Below, piece after piece: positions 18,396 through 54,766 of a stretch of DNA of 64,000 nucleotides; positions within the stretch are counted from its first letter, which is position 1, and every line of letters starts with the position of its first letter. The notes under the pieces were generated by a model. It was not told where the DNA came from. It did not search any database and saw only the letters and a list, made by a program, of their open reading frames with translations. The position numbers and the translations under genes are program-made. The DNA is from Oligoflexia bacterium (lineage in GTDB: Bacteria > Bdellovibrionota_G > JANQFH01): the NCBI GenBank assembly GCA_028277945.1, contig JANQFH010000008.1:195442-259441 (forward strand), read 5' to 3'.

Positions 18396-19142
18396 CTACT
18401 CTCCAAAACCCTTCACAAAAAACTTCTCATCGATCAACCGCAGACCCTCATAGACCTCATACTTGATCAAGGCACCCTTGGTATCGCGGTAGAGCCCTTT
18501 GCGCACTTGTCTTGGTTTTTTGTAAAGGCCCTCAACCTTGCTCAAAAAGGCTGCCAGTTCCTCTCTACTAAAAGGGCCATGCCGTTCCCAATCGAGCCAA
18601 TCAGGGCCAATGGAGACCACCACCGATAGCTCACGGCTGCCAGGTTTTACTCCACCAAAGAGCTTCTTTGCCATCCTCTGACTGCCAAGCGTCAGGAGGT
18701 GCCAGTTGCGGCTTTCAAAATGCTCTCGCTTGTTCTGCTGATCCATAAACATAAAATAGACGCCTTCGCTCCAGGAGCTACGATCCAGATTGACGCCTTT
18801 TTTGAAGCGCTCTAAAAATGTTTTTAAATCGGCAGGTTGATCATGCCAATGCCGTATGATCCTTTTGATAAAAGACCAGGTTGAGATGACAGACATGCCC
18901 TCCTCATCTTGCGACTGATCCAGAGAGTCGAGTTTTTCTAATTCATAACCTCTAAACAGTTCCGAACCTGTATCAGGCTCTGTTACCAGCAGCAGAGCAC
19001 CATCTTTAAGTTCCACAGTATCTCCAAACTCTATAGGTCTTTCGATATCCTCAGGAACTCCAGGGATATCAATCACTGTATCTCCCTGCTGTGCAAAGGG
19101 AGAGTCTGGATGGGGGGGTCGTTTTTCTCTCTCACGCATCAC
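18396..19142 (-). CDS. hypothetical protein, possible immunity/partner protein for the upstream RES-domain protein
   Basis: 248-aa ORF whose start overlaps the stop of 19139..20923 by 4 nt; no signal peptide; acidic. Confidence 0.4.
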   Translation of the reverse strand: MMREREKRPPHPDSPFAQQGDTVIDIPGVPEDIERPIEFGDTVELKDGALLLVTEPDTGSELFRGYELEKLDSLDQSQDEEGMSVISTWSFIKRIIRHWHDQPADLKTFLERFKKGVNLDRSSWSEGVYFMFMDQQNKREHFESRNWHLLTLGSQRMAKKLFGGVKPGSRELSVVVSIGPDWLDWERHGPFSREELAAFLSKVEGLYKKPRQVRKGLYRDTKGALIKYEVYEGLRLIDEKFFVKGFGE

Positions 19143-20923
19143 TCTAGGGCCTCAAAAAGAACGACGTTAAAGCCATCTGGATTTCTTGCCGAGGGTACGA
19201 CAATACCACGATAGTGCAGCCGCGCCAATTCTCCTATTATTTGTGTTATTGAGTAATCCTCAGAGATCAAAGCTTCAGGAGCTATATTTAATAGCTCCCT
19301 GACACTTGGTTCATTAAGATCGAGCATGTTGTCGAGTGTGACATAGCGGCTTCTTGTTTCAATCACCCCCTTGACACCATGGGCTCGCATTTCCGCGGCG
19401 ATGGTCTGCCGATCGCCGCTCATGTAAAGCGCGCTTCTTCCCGGCGCTGAATAGCGATGGTTGGCGGCAATATTACCCTGCGGTATTTTCCACGAACCTG
19501 CTCGGTAAACATCACCTCTGTATTTACTTCCCTTGACAACACCTTGAACCAGCTTTTTGGTGGTATCAGGCCCCAAAGCTTGGCTCGCCCTTATCACCGC
19601 AGGCAGATGCTGCTGATCAAAGAGCTTTCTTGCCAAGCCACCACCACCGCGCCCTAGCAAACTGGTGGTCCCTCGGACCATGACCGTGCCTGACAGGACC
19701 ATAGGCACCATCATGGAGACAACTGTCTCTAAAGCCATCTCAAGCGGCAAGCTCGCCTCGACAACTCCAGTTGACGAATCCTCTTGTAGTGCCCACAAAT
19801 GGTAGTCTGCTGCCGCCATTTTGAGTGCTCCTGACAAGAACTCGCCGTCTCGGATATCTTGCACTCCCTCAATCATTAAATAGGCGGCATCTATAAGATG
19901 TGGCAGATCTGGCAGGGTTAAGGCATGATCGAGGGTAATCTCCACATGTTGCCAGATGTGTTGGGAGAGCCTCTCACCTAGATCGCGCTCTAACAGCGCC
20001 AACTCATCGAAGGTCTCAACACGGATGCGCGCCATGGAGCTGTCTGCTTCCAAATGGAGTCGACCTTTGGCCGTTGATTGAGCGCGTTCTGCTCGGTCAA
20101 TGAGTTCGTCTAATGTCTCCTGTATCCAGCGATGTCGTATGAGATCTCGCATGCTGCGAAGCTCGTGAACCCGCCGTGAGAATGCCGCGTAGCCATAGGC
20201 AACCACCTCCTTACTTGAAGCCCGTTCCACAGCCGCCAGGGCAACATCGGTGGAGGTGGCCGTGAGCCCCAGAAATAGTGGCAATCCATGTCTGTTTTCA
20301 GGAAGTGGCAACTGAGCTTGCTGTTGAAGTTGCACAAAAAGAGAGGAGTTGTGGATCATGTCACTAGCGGAACTGTGAGAAGCGAGATCGGAACCACCCC
20401 TTTCGTGGAGGGTGCGAATGTCGAGGCCGCTTGCAGATGATTCATCTCGAAGCTGATCATCTTGAGCTTGCTCTGCAGAGAGGCTTAGATGTTTGTTACT
20501 CTCTGCAACTGCAGTGTTGGCTTGAAGTAGGCTGAGGCCACGTTGCAACCCTGTAAGGTACTGAACTCTACGCCGAGCTTCCACATCACTGTGAGTCGGT
20601 GCTGAGCCTTCTTCATCCTCATCATCAAATCCACCGATCTCTCCTCTCGGGCTATCAAAGAAAGGGTCAAATCCTTCATCTTCTGTTTTGTCTTTGGGTT
20701 TTTGAGAGGAAACGATAACAATAGGCGTGTCAAAAACAATATGGACGTTGCCATCGGAGTCAACGGTCACATTTCCTGGCTCTGTGGTGTAGTCGTGCTC
20801 TCTTTCCTGAGCTGATTCAGTTTGTCCTGCATCATCTTGTGCAACAAGCTCTCTCTGCAACGGCGAAAAAAGACAAATCGTCGCGATCAATAAATAAAGC
20901 AGGCTTTTACATGAAATTTTCAT
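19139..20923 (-). CDS. secreted protein with C-terminal RES-domain (NAD-targeting toxin-like) module
   Basis: 594-aa ORF; signal peptide; C-terminal region with RES-domain signatures YRAGSW ... RYSAPGRSALYMSGDRQTIAAE ... VVPSARNPDGFNVVLFE. Confidence 0.6.
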   Translation of the reverse strand: MKISCKSLLYLLIATICLFSPLQRELVAQDDAGQTESAQEREHDYTTEPGNVTVDSDGNVHIVFDTPIVIVSSQKPKDKTEDEGFDPFFDSPRGEIGGFDDEDEEGSAPTHSDVEARRRVQYLTGLQRGLSLLQANTAVAESNKHLSLSAEQAQDDQLRDESSASGLDIRTLHERGGSDLASHSSASDMIHNSSLFVQLQQQAQLPLPENRHGLPLFLGLTATSTDVALAAVERASSKEVVAYGYAAFSRRVHELRSMRDLIRHRWIQETLDELIDRAERAQSTAKGRLHLEADSSMARIRVETFDELALLERDLGERLSQHIWQHVEITLDHALTLPDLPHLIDAAYLMIEGVQDIRDGEFLSGALKMAAADYHLWALQEDSSTGVVEASLPLEMALETVVSMMVPMVLSGTVMVRGTTSLLGRGGGGLARKLFDQQHLPAVIRASQALGPDTTKKLVQGVVKGSKYRGDVYRAGSWKIPQGNIAANHRYSAPGRSALYMSGDRQTIAAEMRAHGVKGVIETRSRYVTLDNMLDLNEPSVRELLNIAPEALISEDYSITQIIGELARLHYRGIVVPSARNPDGFNVVLFEALE

Positions 20924-46898: not shown

Positions 46899-47259
46899 CT
46901 CTATTCTCCTTCTTTAGTTACTACGATTGCGGAAAGTTGTTCTGTTTCCTTAATAACGCAAGAATCGTGCCTATACAGGGTCATATAGGCAATCTCATGA
47001 TTCGGGTTTCTGATGTATCTGATAAAACAAAGATGGATGAAGGAAAATGAAACAACCTGACGTTAATCCAAGCAATATGTATGAAAAGAAAACAACAGCG
47101 TGTATGTCATGCTTGGAGTCTTTTCACTCGGTATAAGTAAAAGAGCCTCGACAGAAACGACGTGGATATGTTTGTGCTGAGTCAATTGTTATTTGCGCAT
47201 CTCCGGATCTGATGAAACAGCGACAAACTGAAAGAAGAACTGACCAACTTTACCATTTA

Positions 47260-47352
47260 TAACCTTGACGGATTTAATCAGTCAAGGTAGTCAATGAACT
47301 AGGATTAGTAGGATTATAAATAAGCTTGGAAAGGAAATTGCAATGCGGAGTT
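47260..47352. repeat. duplicated promoter/5'-leader element, copy 2
   Basis: Matches 43254..43343; here the shared ATG CGG AGT start opens only a 16-codon upstream ORF (MRSLMLQFIGRKYVSR, stop 47391..47393) overlapping the start of the gene at 47380. Confidence 0.6.
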
Positions 47353-47379
47353 TAATGTTGCAGTTTATAGGAAGAAAGT

Positions 47380-47748
47380 ATGTCAGCCGTTAAAATTACA
47401 GCAAATTTATTTTCGCTGTACTTTGTAATAGTGCCTTTCAGCAATGCAGCAAACTGGTCACTCGTAGAGAAGATTGACCCAAGCACAACGGCTCAGACCA
47501 AACGTGAATTAACCGACAGCGAGTATTCGTATATTTCTGGTAAATTCAAATGCACTGTTTTAGCACCAGAGAAAGACTCAAATAAAAAACGTGGGTGGTT
47601 TAGAACTATTAAGTGTAAAAATGGCGATCTAGTATTTGAAGATACTGCTTCTTGTGGCGGTATACATGGAGAATTCGGTATTGTCGGGGTTAAAGTTACC
47701 TATAAAGGTGAAACTTTTCAGCCATTGCTAGTTTGTCAGGCAAAATAG
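47380..47748 (+). CDS. small secreted hypothetical protein
   Basis: 122-aa ORF with signal peptide and four Cys. Confidence 0.45.
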   Translation: MSAVKITANLFSLYFVIVPFSNAANWSLVEKIDPSTTAQTKRELTDSEYSYISGKFKCTVLAPEKDSNKKRGWFRTIKCKNGDLVFEDTASCGGIHGEFGIVGVKVTYKGETFQPLLVCQAK

Positions 47749-47975
47749 TTTCATCGCCTAAAATGGCCTAGTCAAGAAAAGCGTTTACAGGTTGTGAAAA
47801 GAGAAGGCCCTCTTATTTCAATGAGGCCGAATTTATCCGCGATATAAATTAGTTGTACAATGGAAACGCATAAGGAACCAGGGCATTCTAGATTTCTCCG
47901 CCCGTCTAAAACCGTGTATATCTGGTATGTAACATCAATAATGCATGATATTGGTCGAAGAAAAGGTTAACATGC

Positions 47976-49151
47976 GTGGATAGGTTAATGAGCGGAAGCT
48001 TGGTCCGTGTCTATGTTGTCCGATTTTGTGCTTCAAGCATTGAAGGGATCGTAGCCGTAATCACGATTACAGCCTTCATCAGAGCGACGGGATCAGTTAG
48101 TGCGGCAAACCTTCTCAATTCCATATTTTGGCTGACGTTATTTTTTGCAGAGCTGCCAACTGGCTATCTAACAGATAAGTGGGGTGGTAAAAGAGCGCTA
48201 GGTATTAGCTTAACTCTACGGGCTATTGGGTTTTTAATTTTCTACCTTGCTGGAGGCTCTTGGATTCTGCTTATAGTAGGCTGTATATTAACAGGCGTCG
48301 CTGTAACTTTCCTAAGTGGAACCTTTGAGCTACAAGTAAAGCAAATTCAAAAAGAGGCACAGACACAAGAGCTAGCCGGAGATTCCTCAAAGACCGTCAT
48401 TTCTTATCTACATTTTTCTCACTATCTGGGCCTATGTACCGGGTCACTTCTCGTAACACTTTGGCTGCTTAAAATGGAGATACAGACAGCATGGCTATTG
48501 TCGGCTTGTCTATCATTTATTGCGCTCGGTATCTTATCCTTTACCTGGGATTCTCTTAAGCCTGCTTATGATAAGGGTCCTTTTATTCATTTCAAAGAAG
48601 CTGTCTCGAAAGTTATTAATGAGCAGAAAGTTCGGAGCCTATTTGTATATCAATTTATCTTTGTACTTTTTTCGATATCGTTTCTAACGAACTGGGTAGT
48701 GATTTTTGTCCCAAGACTAGACAATACGCCGATTCAGCTCGGCGTATTAACGGTGGTTTTTTCTATGCTGATTAGTTTTTTTGTATGGACGTGGAAGTAC
48801 CTAGAGATACTTAAAAGATTAACTATACCTTATGTTTTCATTGGATTTTCTATATCGCAAGTGCTCGCATGCAGCGATGTTATGGTGTTTAGATTTCTTG
48901 GCGGATTAGGTGCCTTATTTTTCTTTGCTGGCTGCCAGATAGGCATCCGGCATGCAATATTTTCATCTATTTCGTCCTCGAAAGCGGGAGCTATCTTGTC
49001 GCTATTTAGTTTGCAGGAAAATTTTTCTGGTTGGGTTGGTTTACTTTCATTGGCATTCTTTCTGAAGCTCTATTCAGTTGAGGTATCCTGGATAGCCTCA
49101 GGAGCCTGCATGGTTGCTGCAGTTGGCTTTTATTCATTCCATCGACGTTGA
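47976..49151 (+). CDS. MFS-type transporter
   Basis: 391-aa polytopic membrane protein; motif-A-like loop GYLTDKWGGKRAL; GTG start at 47976 or ATG at 47988. Confidence 0.55.
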   Translation: MDRLMSGSLVRVYVVRFCASSIEGIVAVITITAFIRATGSVSAANLLNSIFWLTLFFAELPTGYLTDKWGGKRALGISLTLRAIGFLIFYLAGGSWILLIVGCILTGVAVTFLSGTFELQVKQIQKEAQTQELAGDSSKTVISYLHFSHYLGLCTGSLLVTLWLLKMEIQTAWLLSACLSFIALGILSFTWDSLKPAYDKGPFIHFKEAVSKVINEQKVRSLFVYQFIFVLFSISFLTNWVVIFVPRLDNTPIQLGVLTVVFSMLISFFVWTWKYLEILKRLTIPYVFIGFSISQVLACSDVMVFRFLGGLGALFFFAGCQIGIRHAIFSSISSSKAGAILSLFSLQENFSGWVGLLSLAFFLKLYSVEVSWIASGACMVAAVGFYSFHRR

Positions 49152-49213
49152 AAGGACCGGTTAATAGCTACGGTCATATTGCACTTTCAGCTTCTATGAT
49201 CTATTAAGTCGAA

Positions 49214-50011
49214 ATGGCAAGAAAGTCGGTCTACACAAAGGAGTGGTGGAACGCCGCATTTCAAGGAGGTGTCTATCCTCTTACGCAACTGGCGGCCTTA
49301 AAGGATCAAGTGGGGTTAACGCGAAGAGAGGTTCAGGGTATTAAAAAACTGTTGAATCTTCCAAAAGGGTCAAAGATCTTGGATTTAGGATGCGGAGTCG
49401 GACGACACTCGCTAGGTCTTGCAAGACATTCATATGATGTAACCGGAGTTGACATCTCGAATACGTTCCTTAGATATGCACGAGCGAGAGCTAGAAAAAT
49501 GAAACTGCAAGTCAATTTTATACGAAAAGATATGCGACTCCTATCTTTCAAGGGTCAATTTGATGCAGCTATAAATATTTTTACCAGCTTCGGATACTTT
49601 CCGCAAAAGTCTGATGATCTCCGCGTTGCTAGAAAAGTCTGTAAATGCCTTAAGCCAGGCGGTAAATTTCTTCTAGAGATCTTCAACGGTACAAAAATTC
49701 AAAAACTCCTGGTTAATGCCAATAGCAATAGAGAACCCGTCCGCCGCTGGTATGAATTTGCAGATAGGAGTCTGCTGTTAGAGCATCCAAGCTACTCCAA
49801 GCGTCTCGGGGGGACAGTCACGAGGTGGATTTATATCACTAAGGGAAAACGAAAAGAAGTGACTTCGTTCACCAGAGCGTATTCTAAGAGCAGTTTAGTC
49901 CATTTGCTGAAAAATGCAGGATTCAGACAGGTGACAGTTTATGGAGACCTGGAATGTTCACGTTACTATCCGCATAAATCTAACCGCCTAGTAGCAGTAG
50001 CAACGAAGTAG
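49214..50011 (+). CDS. class I SAM-dependent methyltransferase
   Basis: 265-aa ORF with motif I ILDLGCGVGRHS and downstream acidic-loop and motif-II-like segments. Confidence 0.75.
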   Translation: MARKSVYTKEWWNAAFQGGVYPLTQLAALKDQVGLTRREVQGIKKLLNLPKGSKILDLGCGVGRHSLGLARHSYDVTGVDISNTFLRYARARARKMKLQVNFIRKDMRLLSFKGQFDAAINIFTSFGYFPQKSDDLRVARKVCKCLKPGGKFLLEIFNGTKIQKLLVNANSNREPVRRWYEFADRSLLLEHPSYSKRLGGTVTRWIYITKGKRKEVTSFTRAYSKSSLVHLLKNAGFRQVTVYGDLECSRYYPHKSNRLVAVATK

Positions 50012-50306
50012 AGGATGACGGGGGAAAACTAGCAGTCGATCGACAATTTGGAAACCCTATTCCGGATTTTGAGGATATACTAAATGGAAGATTTTGAGAC
50101 ATTGACTCCGCAAATAAATCCTATGGGCGCTATTCGTCCTGTATCCTACGACCAACGGTTGAGGAGGCTGTACGCCGCTATCCTGAGAGTGTCACAATGC
50201 AAAAACTCGTTCAGGCGTTAAAAGCTGCTACTCCGTTCCCCACGCCAGTTCCTAAAAATTAAATCGCTATTCACTGCTTCGGTTGGTGGCAACGCATTAG
50301 GGAAAA

Positions 50307-50426
50307 AATTCCCGATCGGTAATAAATAGGCCTCAAATCTGTCTTATTTGATATAAAATTCCCGATCAGGAATAATTTTCTTGATTTCAGTCTAGGTGTA
50401 GATTAATATTCCCGTACGGGAATATG
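50307..50426. promoter_or_regulatory. three spaced palindromic operator-like sites upstream of hipBA
   Basis: AATTCCCGATCGGTAAT (about 50307..50323), ATTCCCGATCAGGAAT (about 50358..50373) and the perfect 16-bp palindrome ATTCCCGTACGGGAAT (50407..50422) at about 50-bp spacing; the third ends 1 bp before the hipB ATG at 50424. Confidence 0.55.
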
Positions 50427-50654
50427 AAACAGGCAGCAGCACAGATTGGTCATTTAGTGAAAAAGACCCGTAAAAGTCTAGGTGTCACCCAGAAGGAGTT
50501 GGCGCTGACCTCGGGTACAGGTCTGCGCTTCATCATTGAGCTGGAGAAGGGCAAACCGACCTGTCAACTAGCCAAGGTGCTGACGGTTCTACATACGCTG
50601 GGCATCAAGCTTGAGCTAACGGCGCCAGCCACTGCAAGAGATGACGGCAAATGA
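50424..50654 (+). CDS. hipB: HipB-like XRE-family HTH antitoxin
   Basis: 76-aa ORF with HTH segment LGVTQKELALTSGTGLRFIIELEKGK; overlaps the hipA start by 4 nt. Confidence 0.7.
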   Translation: MKQAAAQIGHLVKKTRKSLGVTQKELALTSGTGLRFIIELEKGKPTCQLAKVLTVLHTLGIKLELTAPATARDDGK

Positions 50655-51907
50655 GCAAGACTCTTGATGTTTATTTGTACCGCCACCTGGTTGGCTGCCT
50701 CATACAGGATGAGCATGGTCTGATGGTATTTGATTATGCAGAGAACTGGCTAGAGAATCCCAACGCAATTCCTCTATCGTGTTCGCTACCGCTAAGAAAA
50801 GAGCGCTTCTCGTTTAAGGAATGCCGAGGATTTTTTACCGGCGTCCTACCAGAAGAAAGTAAACGAGAGGTGATTGCGCGCATTTTTGGAATTAGTGCAC
50901 GCAATGACTTTGCCATGCTTGAGCAAATTGGCGGTGAGTGCGCTGGAGCAGTTACTTTCATTCCCACTGGTCAATTGTTGCCGGAGCGTGACGAGCACTA
51001 CCGTGAGGTTTCCAACCAAGAGTTGGCGGAAGTTCTTCGAACACTACCAACTCGGCCCCTTTTGGCGGGAGAAGAGGGCGTCCGTCTATCGCTAGCAGGT
51101 GCACAGGACAAAATTGCTGTTCGTATGGATGGCGATAGAATCTCCATTCCGCTTGGAGACTCTCCCAGCACACACATCCTGAAGCCCGACATCGAGCGTT
51201 TCCAAGGGGTGGTTTTCAACGAGGCGCTCTGTATGCAATTGGCGGCCTCTATCGGCCTACCAACGGCGAATGTACAAACCCGCAGCGTTGAAGGCATCGA
51301 TTATCTTTTGATTGAACGCTATGACCGAGTGGTTCATATGACGTCCGATGGTCAGGCAAAGCTTCAACGTCTGCATCAGGAGGATTTTTGTCAGGCACTC
51401 GGTATTCCATCCGAGATGAAGTACCAGAGCGAGGGAGGGCCATCTCTCAAACAGTGCTTTAGCTTACTGCGAGAAGTTTCCAGCGCACCGGTGATCGACC
51501 TACAGCATCTTCTAGATGCCGTTATTTTTAATCTGCTGATTGGCAATCACGATGCGCATGCAAAGAACTTTTCATTTTTGTATGGAGATGGGACATCAGT
51601 AGAGCGGGGGACAAGACTTGCACCTCTGTATGATCTGATCAGCACCGTCTATTACCCAGAACTATCCAAGAAGATGGCCATGAAAATTGGTGGTGAGTAT
51701 GCTGCAGACAAAATCTTCCCAAGACATTTTGAGAGACTTGCCGAAGAGGCTGCCTTAGCCAAGCCGATGGTCAAGAAACGTATACCGGAGGTAGCTGAAT
51801 CCCTGATACACAGTCTAAGCAGCTTAACTACTGAAGAGTCGGTAGCAAAGGGTGTCACTCAAACTATACAAAAGCAGGCTGAATTGGTTCTGGAACGATT
51901 CAGATAA
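50651..51907 (+). CDS. hipA: HipA-family serine/threonine kinase toxin
   Basis: 418-aa ORF; HipA N-terminal region and catalytic motif FNLLIGNHDAHAKNFSF, plus LAGAQDKIAV. Confidence 0.85.
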   Translation: MSKTLDVYLYRHLVGCLIQDEHGLMVFDYAENWLENPNAIPLSCSLPLRKERFSFKECRGFFTGVLPEESKREVIARIFGISARNDFAMLEQIGGECAGAVTFIPTGQLLPERDEHYREVSNQELAEVLRTLPTRPLLAGEEGVRLSLAGAQDKIAVRMDGDRISIPLGDSPSTHILKPDIERFQGVVFNEALCMQLAASIGLPTANVQTRSVEGIDYLLIERYDRVVHMTSDGQAKLQRLHQEDFCQALGIPSEMKYQSEGGPSLKQCFSLLREVSSAPVIDLQHLLDAVIFNLLIGNHDAHAKNFSFLYGDGTSVERGTRLAPLYDLISTVYYPELSKKMAMKIGGEYAADKIFPRHFERLAEEAALAKPMVKKRIPEVAESLIHSLSSLTTEESVAKGVTQTIQKQAELVLERFR

Positions 51908-51913
51908 GGTTAG

Positions 51914-52180
51914 TTATTTCCCCCATCCGATATATTTCTTGTAACCTTTTTCTAAATTTATAATTTCAAAGACATCACCATCAAATGTTGAGCACTGCAA
52001 TTTTTTTCCATTACATCCAAGATTGGCGTAGTTAATTTCTGGCTGGTGTCTGGATGGCGGTGCTAGGGTCCACATTTCTTTACCGTTTAGATCGAACGCT
52101 CGGATGTTTTGTGGGTCTCTGGATTCAAAGAGAAAGACGATGAGTTTATCAGCTAGGTAGGCTGTTTGATACATTCCCAC
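51914..52180 (-). CDS. immunity-like small protein, N-terminally shortened paralog of 52293..52658
   Basis: 88-aa ORF sharing RDPQNIRAFDLNG ... DVFEIINLEKGYKK with 52293..52658; in-frame stop about 8 codons upstream of its start. Confidence 0.4.
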   Translation of the reverse strand: MGMYQTAYLADKLIVFLFESRDPQNIRAFDLNGKEMWTLAPPSRHQPEINYANLGCNGKKLQCSTFDGDVFEIINLEKGYKKYIGWGK

Positions 52181-52292
52181 AATGCTTTGGGATTGGTACA
52201 GGCTTGAGGTTATCAGTTTTTATCTCTATGTTATCGCCGTTAGTAATAAAATATATTGAATTGAGCATTCTGAGTTTGCCAAACAACGTTGA

Positions 52293-52658
52293 TTACTTAC
52301 CCCATCTTTTTTTAAAACCTTTTTCTAGGTTTATGATCTCGAATACATCGCACTCCACTGTAGCGCATAGCAGACTGTTTTCATATTCCCATAGATTGAC
52401 GTAGTAGACCTCCGGTCTATATCTAGATGCCTTTGTTAGTGCCCATAATTCATTGCCATGGAGATCAAAAGCACGGATATTCTGTGGGTCTTTGGATCTA
52501 AAAAGTACAATAATGATGTTATCGATCAGATATCCTACTGTAATCTTCCCATATGTTTTAGGAAGGAGTATGGATTTGTGATTGTCTACTTTTATTTCTA
52601 TTCTATTGTCTCTTTCTAGAAGTTTTTGTAATTTCACCATATTATTGGTTCGCTCCAT
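52293..52658 (-). CDS. immunity-like small protein (downstream of large secreted toxin-like gene)
   Basis: 121-aa ORF overlapping the 3' end of 52634..54766; no signal peptide. Confidence 0.4.
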   Translation of the reverse strand: MERTNNMVKLQKLLERDNRIEIKVDNHKSILLPKTYGKITVGYLIDNIIIVLFRSKDPQNIRAFDLHGNELWALTKASRYRPEVYYVNLWEYENSLLCATVECDVFEIINLEKGFKKRWGK

Positions 52659-54766
52659 GCTTCAACCGATGATTCTAGAGGTTCATCAATCAATTCCCAT
52701 TGAATGCCTCCACCCGGAGTACCGAATTCATCAACTTTGTCGACGATTCCCTTTCTTAGAACAGTACTCGTAGGGACACGAACTTCGACCATGAAGGTCA
52801 TACTATTATTTGGAGGAAGAGAATATAAATCCCTTACAACACTTTTACTCAGAGTTCGAGGATCAACTTCCATTAACCATGGCCCCATTTTGTCAGAATT
52901 ATCTCCAAACACTCGATAGAAGATTTTTGTTTCTTTTAGTTCTATTGTTTCAACAATCTGATTTGGGGCATAGGGCCTGATACCTTTGGCATATTTCCAA
53001 TAGCTGTCAACCGCACCGGCGGTCTGTTTGCCAGGAAGAGCAGCTTTTGCCAGTTTGGTCCAGGTCGAGGCTTGTGTGAGCTCTTCTGGGGTTATCTGGT
53101 CCTTTTGTACGGCGCGGAAGCCGCGAAGGGAGAGGAGGACAGGACGTTTTTTGACGAAGGCTTCTACGGTCTCTGGGCCCAGCTCTGCGACCACCGTGGC
53201 GAATCCGGCGCTGGCCTGCTTTTCTCCGGAAATGGCCATCTTTAGGGCGATGGCTTGGGTATAGGGGCCGAGACGGGGCAGGGTATCGACAAGAACGCCA
53301 GACTGTAATGCCTTTGCCATCCTGGCGTGGTGGATTTTGGCGAGGGGGATGCCAACTTTACTCAAGACAACGCGTAATGATTGGACGCCGATGGCTCTGG
53401 CAAGACCGCCGATGGTATTAACGCCGAGGCTGCCGAGTGCCAGGACCGTTTCCCCAGCTATCCCTGGGGCAGTGATGGCGTCACGATCCACAAAGCCATC
53501 GGTGAGATACTTGGCGATGGCTGCTGCGGTTGCTGCTCGCAGGTAGTCGCCTTGGGAGAGGGCCTCTTGGCTACTGCGGATCTGCTCCTGCAGTAGGGCA
53601 GGTGAGTACGGTTGGTTGTAAGGGGTGATCTTACCGGCAACCACCTGCTGGTTGTAAAGGGCAGCACGGATCAGGGTGTTGAACACGGCACTTTCGGCTG
53701 CTGCATCGATCTCCGCCAGTCCTTCGTGCAGAGTGCGTTCAAAATCGTAACTGCGGAGAATTCCCGCCAGTCCTGAACGGAGTGTGGCGAGTTTCGTGCG
53801 CATGCTTTCAAAAAGCTCACGGGTTGCCAGCATCGAGGCATGCAAGTTGGGATCTTCAATCAGATCGGCAACAGCCTCGATGGTAAGCAGATGCAGATCA
53901 ACAGCTTCGGTGAGCTCTAAGACAAGATACTCGTCGTTGACACGAATGGCCTCCTCGACTTTGGCTCCTAGAGGCGCGTACGCAGCTGCCAGGGACTGTT
54001 TGAGTGGGTCTCTGAGAAGAGAGAGAGGATTTTGAAAGACATCATGGAAGATCTGTTCAGGGTTCCAGAGATTTTCTAGATCCACCTCCTGCATGGCTTC
54101 TTCAATGAGCTCTCTGTGGGTGGCACGGGCCATGTTTGCTACTGCCTTGTCCCCCTCTAAGGTATCGAGGCCGACGACAATGGTGTTTTCACTCAAGTGG
54201 CTCCATTTGAGATTTGCCTGTTGATGAAAGCGCTGGTAAAGCGCTTGCATCCGGGGGATTAAGGATTGTTGTTCGTAACCTTTCCACTGTTGGTGTTTGA
54301 TGCGGATCACTTCTGAATTGGGACGAACAGTGTGCAATGGCTCAGGTCTTTTAGGTGGCTCTCTAGGATCGACCTCACCAGGATGAGGTCTGTCCCAGTG
54401 AAAGGGATCGAAGTCATTAAAATGATCATGACCGTTGCTGTTGGGAAGGTCGTCTTCAGCATACTGTTCATCGACCGGATGAGGTCGTTCTGTCGGGTTT
54501 TTTGGGGATTCGTTCTTTACGGGAAATTCAACATCACGCTCCATCGTGACGGTGATTTTTCCTGTTTTAGGATCTATATAAACTCCAGGATAACCTCCAG
54601 GCATGATGTCTTTAGGCGCGTGGTTATTTCCTGGTTTTTCGACCTCGCTCCCATTGCCATCACCGCCGCCTGTTTCCTGAGCGCTAGCTGATAAATCAAC
54701 AGCTGATGTGGCCATGATATAGAGAGTCAACAAGAAGGTGATAAATCTCTTCAGAGAGTCCTTCAT
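52634..54766 (-). CDS. large secreted polymorphic-toxin-like protein
   Basis: 710-aa ORF; signal peptide, Gly/Pro-rich region, long helical region; C-terminal about 100 residues contain an R ... TST ... QWE arrangement (FYRVFG, PTSTVL, IQWELID) compatible with, but not proving, an ADP-ribosyltransferase-like domain. Confidence 0.45.
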   Translation of the reverse strand: MKDSLKRFITFLLTLYIMATSAVDLSASAQETGGGDGNGSEVEKPGNNHAPKDIMPGGYPGVYIDPKTGKITVTMERDVEFPVKNESPKNPTERPHPVDEQYAEDDLPNSNGHDHFNDFDPFHWDRPHPGEVDPREPPKRPEPLHTVRPNSEVIRIKHQQWKGYEQQSLIPRMQALYQRFHQQANLKWSHLSENTIVVGLDTLEGDKAVANMARATHRELIEEAMQEVDLENLWNPEQIFHDVFQNPLSLLRDPLKQSLAAAYAPLGAKVEEAIRVNDEYLVLELTEAVDLHLLTIEAVADLIEDPNLHASMLATRELFESMRTKLATLRSGLAGILRSYDFERTLHEGLAEIDAAAESAVFNTLIRAALYNQQVVAGKITPYNQPYSPALLQEQIRSSQEALSQGDYLRAATAAAIAKYLTDGFVDRDAITAPGIAGETVLALGSLGVNTIGGLARAIGVQSLRVVLSKVGIPLAKIHHARMAKALQSGVLVDTLPRLGPYTQAIALKMAISGEKQASAGFATVVAELGPETVEAFVKKRPVLLSLRGFRAVQKDQITPEELTQASTWTKLAKAALPGKQTAGAVDSYWKYAKGIRPYAPNQIVETIELKETKIFYRVFGDNSDKMGPWLMEVDPRTLSKSVVRDLYSLPPNNSMTFMVEVRVPTSTVLRKGIVDKVDEFGTPGGGIQWELIDEPLESSVEAWSEPIIW

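Follow-up and report, generated by a model that had tools for sequence, protein, structure and literature searches.

Predicted HipB operators upstream of a Y4mF-family hipBA operon: three palindromes with a sequence and spacing conserved across phyla

Introduction

In Escherichia coli K-12, HipB binds cooperatively to four TATCC-N8-GGATA operators, O1-O4, with HipA as the co-repressor (PMC3920265). These operators are 18 bp long and are separated by gaps of 10, 21 and 10 bp (PMC4150777). The hipBA locus of Shewanella oneidensis MR-1 has four operators of the form GTGTA-N6-TACAC, which are separated by 34-bp gaps and the last of which lies inside hipB (Wen et al. 2014, PMC4150777). In the hipBST system of Legionella pneumophila, three 18-nt operators with 6-nt half-sites and 53-bp gaps were validated by gel shift, and the only conserved hipBA operator sequences to which the authors of that work refer are the two from E. 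coli and S. oneidensis (PMC10653801). Sites upstream of hipBA1 and hipBA2 of Caulobacter crescentus are presented as inverted repeats that are identical, or as three operators (PMC7029023 Fig. S8; PMC8545095 Fig. S2G). A gel shift performed with HipB of Acidovorax citrulli (PMC11990009) was considered as further support and rejected, since the HipB gene of that organism is 507 bp in length and represents a different HipB type.

Here we describe the promoter region of a hipBA operon located in a 64-kb stretch of DNA from an Oligoflexia bacterium. This whole stretch is referred to below as the window, and coordinates are positions within it. The original prediction, made from the letters of the window, was that three regularly spaced palindromes upstream of hipBA resemble the multi-operator autoregulation known for E. 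coli hipBA, with a half-site of a different sequence.

Results

The hipBA operon of the window

The hipB gene (50424-50654, plus strand) encodes a 76-aa Y4mF-family helix-turn-helix antitoxin with a match to Pfam HTH_3. The protein scored 75.5 bits against the NCBIfam model TIGR03070 (couple_hipB, Y4mF family antitoxin), above the curated cutoff of 71.65, and its N-terminus lines up with orthologs of the MKYTPQQIG type. The hipA gene (50651-51907, plus strand) shares 4 bp with the hipB reading frame and encodes a predicted HipA-family Ser/Thr kinase toxin of 418 aa with the Pfam domains Couple_hipA and HipA_C. Matches were obtained to TIGR03071 and PF13657, as well as to PF07804 at E = 4.8e-57. 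Alignment with E. coli HipA (2WIU) revealed that SLAGAQDK, HDAHAKN and LYDLIS are kept, corresponding to the motifs AGAQ(D/E)K, D-x-HAKN and YD(I/L)IS; as read from this alignment, the P-loop serine and the catalytic and Mg-binding kinase motifs are intact.

Searches of PDB sequences with the window HipB returned Legionella HipB(Lp) (8EZT) as the best match at E = 6e-8 and S. oneidensis HipB (4PU3) at E = 0.0015, while E. coli HipB (88 aa) gave no match at E <= 1. The window HipA matched E. coli HipA at 1e-46 and S. oneidensis HipA (4PU3) at about 1e-41 to 8e-41. Judged by these sequence matches, none of the solved structures is close to the window proteins. The GC content of hipBA (50500-51500) is 51-53% compared to 37-44% in the flanks (47000-50000 and 51500-53000), and the nearest HipA homologs, which are mostly from Acidobacteriota and Verrucomicrobiota, are at most 69% identical. 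Because of its elevated GC content and the distance to its closest HipA homologs, the hipBA module looks horizontally acquired.

Three palindromes precede hipB

A pattern search for ATTCCCG-N2-CGGGAAT with up to two mismatches revealed exactly three matches within the 64-kb window, which we designate O1, O2 and O3 without assigning them a strand. The distal site O1 (ATTCCCGATCGGTAAT, 50308-50323) has one mismatch to the palindrome and has a counterpart in orthologous loci. The middle site O2 (ATTCCCGATCAGGAAT, 50358-50373) also has one mismatch, and it ends 7 bp 5' of a predicted -35 hexamer that is conserved and is described below. The proximal site O3 (ATTCCCGTACGGGAAT, 50408-50423) is perfect and overlaps both the predicted -10 hexamer and the predicted transcription start. 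The gaps between the 16-mers (50324-50357 and 50374-50407) are 34 bp each. A repeat finder, applied as a second, independent method, identified the same kind of array, a three-copy family with spacings of 50 and 50. Three palindromes of this pattern before hipBA, one of them a perfect 16-mer, are thus confirmed by two methods, and the spacing, originally given as about 50 bp, is indeed regular and can be refined to exactly 50 bp. The last palindrome had been placed 1 bp before the hipB start codon. This holds for the 14-bp core of O3, which stops 1 bp short of the ATG, but not for the 16-mer, which adjoins the ATG directly. When O3 is widened further, the perfect palindrome spans 20 bp (50406-50425) and reaches into the hipB start codon at 50424, of which it includes the A and T.

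Chance occurrence was estimated from 100 dinucleotide-preserving shuffles of the window, in which 0.16 sites were expected compared to the three seen; none of the 100 shuffles gave three or more. This argues against the palindromes being a chance or relic repeat that has no function. No fourth operator was found one period upstream (50258) or one period downstream (50458) of the array. Looking for the palindrome elsewhere, as had originally been suggested, likewise yielded no copies in the 64-kb window beyond the three.

The array accompanies hipB in related loci

A scan of a genome collection for HipA yielded 80 loci with HipA identities of 46-68%, spanning Acidobacteriota, Verrucomicrobiota, Planctomycetota, Nitrospirota, Bacteroidota, Alpha-, Beta- and Gammaproteobacteria and other groups. 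A hipB gene could be placed in 72 of them, and in these we counted the core TTCCCG-N2-CGGGAA, allowing at most two mismatches out of 12. The core occurred 200 times between -200 and +100 of the hipB starts (21.6 kb in total), compared to 31 times in the remaining 436 kb of flanking DNA, and two of these 31 are truly upstream of a mis-called hipB. The density upstream of hipB was therefore ~130-fold that of the flanking DNA. Perfect copies of the core were absent from the flanks except for those belonging to a hipB upstream region. Exactly three sites were present in 55 of the 72 loci. The spacing between sites was 49 bp in 55 instances and 50 bp in 64, and O1 and O3 were 98-101 bp apart in the related loci. 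Three sites with spacings of 49 and 49 bp are also present in the family archetype, y4mF/HipA on the Sinorhizobium fredii plasmid pNGR234a, and a Brevundimonas plasmid has three sites upstream of hipB spaced by 50 and 50 bp. Together with the shuffled controls, the ~130-fold enrichment upstream of hipB at 72 independent loci and the fixed 49/50-bp spacing effectively refute the reading of the palindromes as a functionless repeat, to which we attach next to no likelihood.

Across the loci, HipB is 36-75% identical to the window protein. Within its helix-turn-helix, the residues Q23, L26, A27, G31, R35, F36, E41, G43, K44 and T46 are invariant. The half-site varies at one position only (C/A at position 3, G/T at position 12), and the invariance of the HipB residues agrees with this invariance of the half-site. 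It could be argued that the sites are bound by a regulator other than HipB, such as a global factor of the host or one encoded by a mobile element, and the apparent horizontal acquisition of the region, with its GC content above that of the flanks, would be in keeping with this. However, the motif accompanies hipB across phyla and onto plasmids, and the sole DNA-binding protein common to all these loci is HipB. The lack of other copies in the 64-kb window, and of perfect copies in the flanks of the related loci outside hipB upstream regions, also speaks against this, and we consider a regulator other than HipB highly improbable.

The spacers between the sites are AT-rich (38% GC compared to 56% for the loci overall). 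In the 55 aligned loci, a T-rich tract (tatTTt) is conserved 3' of O1 and of O2 and is absent after O3. Outside the palindrome, the repeated unit is therefore not symmetric. The tract may be a bending element or an element contacted by HipA.

The array also crosses a number of hipB gene calls. In six loci (L043, L044, L045, L064, L073 and L078), the hipB gene called as the longest open reading frame runs upstream through the operators, and the deposited hipB annotation on the Brevundimonas plasmid (L082, 1532-1804) likewise extends upstream across them. The spurious N-termini contain the residues FPIGN, which are the translation of TTCCCGATCGGGAA. The operator motif offers a means of correcting hipB start codons where the annotated gene crosses operators.

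A promoter is predicted between O2 and O3

The 55 three-site loci were anchored on their operators, and pairs of -35 and -10 hexamers were scored out of 12 against the consensus. A TTGAC-like hexamer starts 6-9 nt past the O2 core in these loci, and in 54 of the 55 the end of a TAnnnT hexamer falls between -1 and +2 relative to the base at which the O3 core begins. The mean promoter score was 8.7 for the O2-O3 spacer compared to 5.9 for the O1-O2 spacer, which served as the control, and scores of at least 9/12 were reached by 28 of 55 and 1 of 55 loci, respectively. These consensus matches suggest a conserved sigma-70-like promoter between O2 and O3. In the window, the predicted -35 hexamer is TTGATT (50381-50386, plus strand) and the predicted -10 hexamer is TAATAT (50404-50409, plus strand), separated by a 17-nt spacer; both match the consensus and are at the conserved positions. 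The pair scores 8/12, compared to 10/12 for a second, window-specific promoter-like match that brackets O2 (TTGATA-17-AATAAT, 50348-50376, plus strand). The match around O2 is not conserved in the orthologous loci.

The conserved hexamers would place the transcription start near A50416, at the centre of O3, giving a leader of ~8 nt. As the predicted -10 adjoins O3, the predicted transcription start is covered by this site. Occupied operators would be expected to occlude RNA polymerase with either promoter. In the window, no Shine-Dalgarno sequence separates O3 from the hipB ATG, nor is there room for one, and therefore initiation of hipB translation would need an mRNA with a very short leader. 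The hipB start codon is at most 7 nt after O3 in about 44% of the loci (L027, L040, L044 and about 20 others besides the window), where the predicted start inside O3 would likewise give a very short leader lacking a Shine-Dalgarno sequence. In the remaining loci the gap is 9-47 nt, often with an SD-like element.

The position of O3 raises the alternative that the proximal palindrome acts as an RNA hairpin in the hipB 5' leader, sequestering the start codon and governing translation or mRNA stability, with the upstream copies being incidental. If transcribed from an upstream start, the segment 50384-50450 folds at -17.4 kcal/mol (z = -3.05), and two bases of the AUG, the A and the U, are part of the 8-bp hairpin stem (AUAUUCCC/GGGAAUAU). 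The missing Shine-Dalgarno sequence would suit such a leader, and the promoter-like match bracketing O2 would transcribe the whole of O3. From the conserved -10, however, transcription is predicted to start in the middle of O3, so that only half of the palindrome would be transcribed, and O1 and O2 are conserved equally although they are upstream of the conserved predicted promoter. In about half of the loci O3 is 11-47 nt from the start codon, where sequestration is impossible. Base pairing would moreover be expected to produce compensatory change at position 3/12, which is absent: the combinations found were C/G (115), C/T (49), A/G (23) and A/T (13), with a Fisher p of 0.55. The variable position thus changes independently in the two halves, which fits recognition by a protein and not hairpin pairing. 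A search of 49900-50700 against Rfam gave no match. Collectively, these observations make the hairpin reading very unlikely.

Discussion

The results described above suggest, with a high degree of likelihood, that O1-O3 are the operators of the hipBA promoter and that they are bound by the Y4mF-family HipB for autorepression, HipB binding being inferred from the association of the array with hipB. The originally proposed multi-operator autoregulation by HipB, through a half-site unlike that of E. coli, is supported by the core and the 49/50-bp spacing that accompany hipB in the 72 loci and in y4mF, and further by the interleaved conserved promoter-like hexamers and the invariant HipB helix-turn-helix. 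There are precedents in E. coli (PMC3920265), S. oneidensis (PMC4150777) and the Legionella HipBST system (PMC10653801), in each of which HipB controls its own operon via repeated palindromes. We propose that a dimer of HipB, produced from the adjacent downstream gene, would recognise each palindrome, probably with HipA attached as co-repressor. In this arrangement O2 ends just 5' of the predicted -35, O3 overlaps the end of the predicted -10 and the predicted start, and O1 lies one period further upstream. Occupation of the operators would block RNA polymerase and keep hipBA off, and the operon would be de-repressed if HipB were lost, for instance through proteolysis.

E. coli hipBA, the model originally put forward, remains apt for the kind of control: both promoters have multiple palindromic operators, and hipB and hipA overlap in both. 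It does not provide the nearest geometry, as the E. coli operators are 18 bp with an N8 centre in four copies with gaps of 10/21/10, compared to 16-bp ATTCC-N6-GGAAT sites in three copies with gaps of 34 here. The nearest published geometry is that of S. oneidensis (PMC4150777), where 16-bp operators (5-N6-5) and 34-bp gaps give the same 50-bp period and where the array, located upstream of a hipB-hipA operon, similarly extends as far as, or into, the beginning of hipB. The S. oneidensis array differs in its half-site (GTGTA/TACAC compared to ATTCC(CG)/(CG)GGAAT) and in having four copies instead of three, and the HipB and HipA proteins are only distantly related. The L. pneumophila promoter resembles the one described here in having three evenly spaced operators upstream of hipB, of which the proximal one overlaps the predicted promoter, and in a motif that is restricted to the system's own promoter; HipB(Lp) is in addition the nearest solved relative of the window HipB. 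In contrast, its period is 71 bp, its O2 and O3 are asymmetric, and the system is tripartite (HipB, HipS and HipT) where that of the window is bipartite. The C. crescentus loci share the presence of repeated sites upstream of hipBA in an alphaproteobacterium, their repeats being given as figures only in the published sources. Caulobacteraceae relatives carry the TTCCCG-N2-CGGGAA motif, and when a Caulobacteraceae HipB served as the query for homologs, no named C. crescentus protein was among the best 120 matches. In full-text literature we found no description in words of the motif in connection with HipB or hipBA, and neither the half-site nor the three-site architecture with its 49/50-bp period is described in words in the accessible literature.

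The strictness of the 49/50-bp period suggests one defined higher-order assembly made up of the three bound complexes. Such an assembly is not a given, because HipB of S. oneidensis alone shows no cooperativity between neighbouring operators (Wen et al. 2014, PMC4150777). Measured from centre to centre, neighbouring operators of the described HipB arrays are 28 or 39 bp apart in E. coli, 50 bp apart in S. oneidensis and 71 bp apart in Legionella (PMC4150777, PMC10653801), and the distance in the window family is 49/50 bp. By arithmetic on the published values and our own counts, all of them are about 2.5-3.5 bp below a whole number of 10.5-bp turns. This common phase offset could mean that promoter DNA takes the same three-dimensional course in assemblies of HipA and HipB. 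The operator is strongly bent by HipB, with 70 degrees quoted for E. coli (PMC3920265) and about 125 degrees for S. oneidensis (PMC4150777). A bolder proposal, which we regard as rather doubtful, is that the 49/50-bp period encodes an obligate higher-order nucleoprotein particle. In such a particle, each sharply bent operator would be turned by about -90 to -120 degrees relative to the one before it, the path of the AT-rich spacers would be a left-handed wrap, and HipA molecules on adjacent operators could touch each other. If this were true, the promoter would not only be a target of repression but would also act as a scaffold on which the kinase is stored and silenced. That the distantly related S. 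oneidensis system has this spacing too hints at a shared constraint on how HipA-HipB is seated on promoter DNA, and such a constraint bears on how HipA is kept inactive.

With the autorepression reading, the Y4mF-type HipBA systems, which are widespread but unstudied, gain a putative operator consensus, (A)TTCCCG-WW-CGGGAA(T), and a defined promoter architecture of three sites with a 49/50-bp period and a predicted promoter between O2 and O3. Both should ease gel-shift, footprint and structural work. On this reading the array is an ordinary control element and reveals no new kind of system; what is unusual is how well its sequence and its 49-50 bp spacing are conserved across phyla.

The larger open reading frames scanned in the window are accessory genes. 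Downstream of hipA, the minus strand carries a 710-aa open reading frame (52634-54766) and, after it, two small ones of 121 aa (52293-52658) and 88 aa (51914-52180). None of the three has a Pfam match, and the two small ones are paralogous (55% identity, E = 5e-34). The three are arranged like a toxin gene accompanied by duplicated immunity-like genes. A further open reading frame of 594 aa (19139-20923, minus strand) has a C-terminal RES domain, a domain found in the toxins of RES-Xre toxin-antitoxin pairs.
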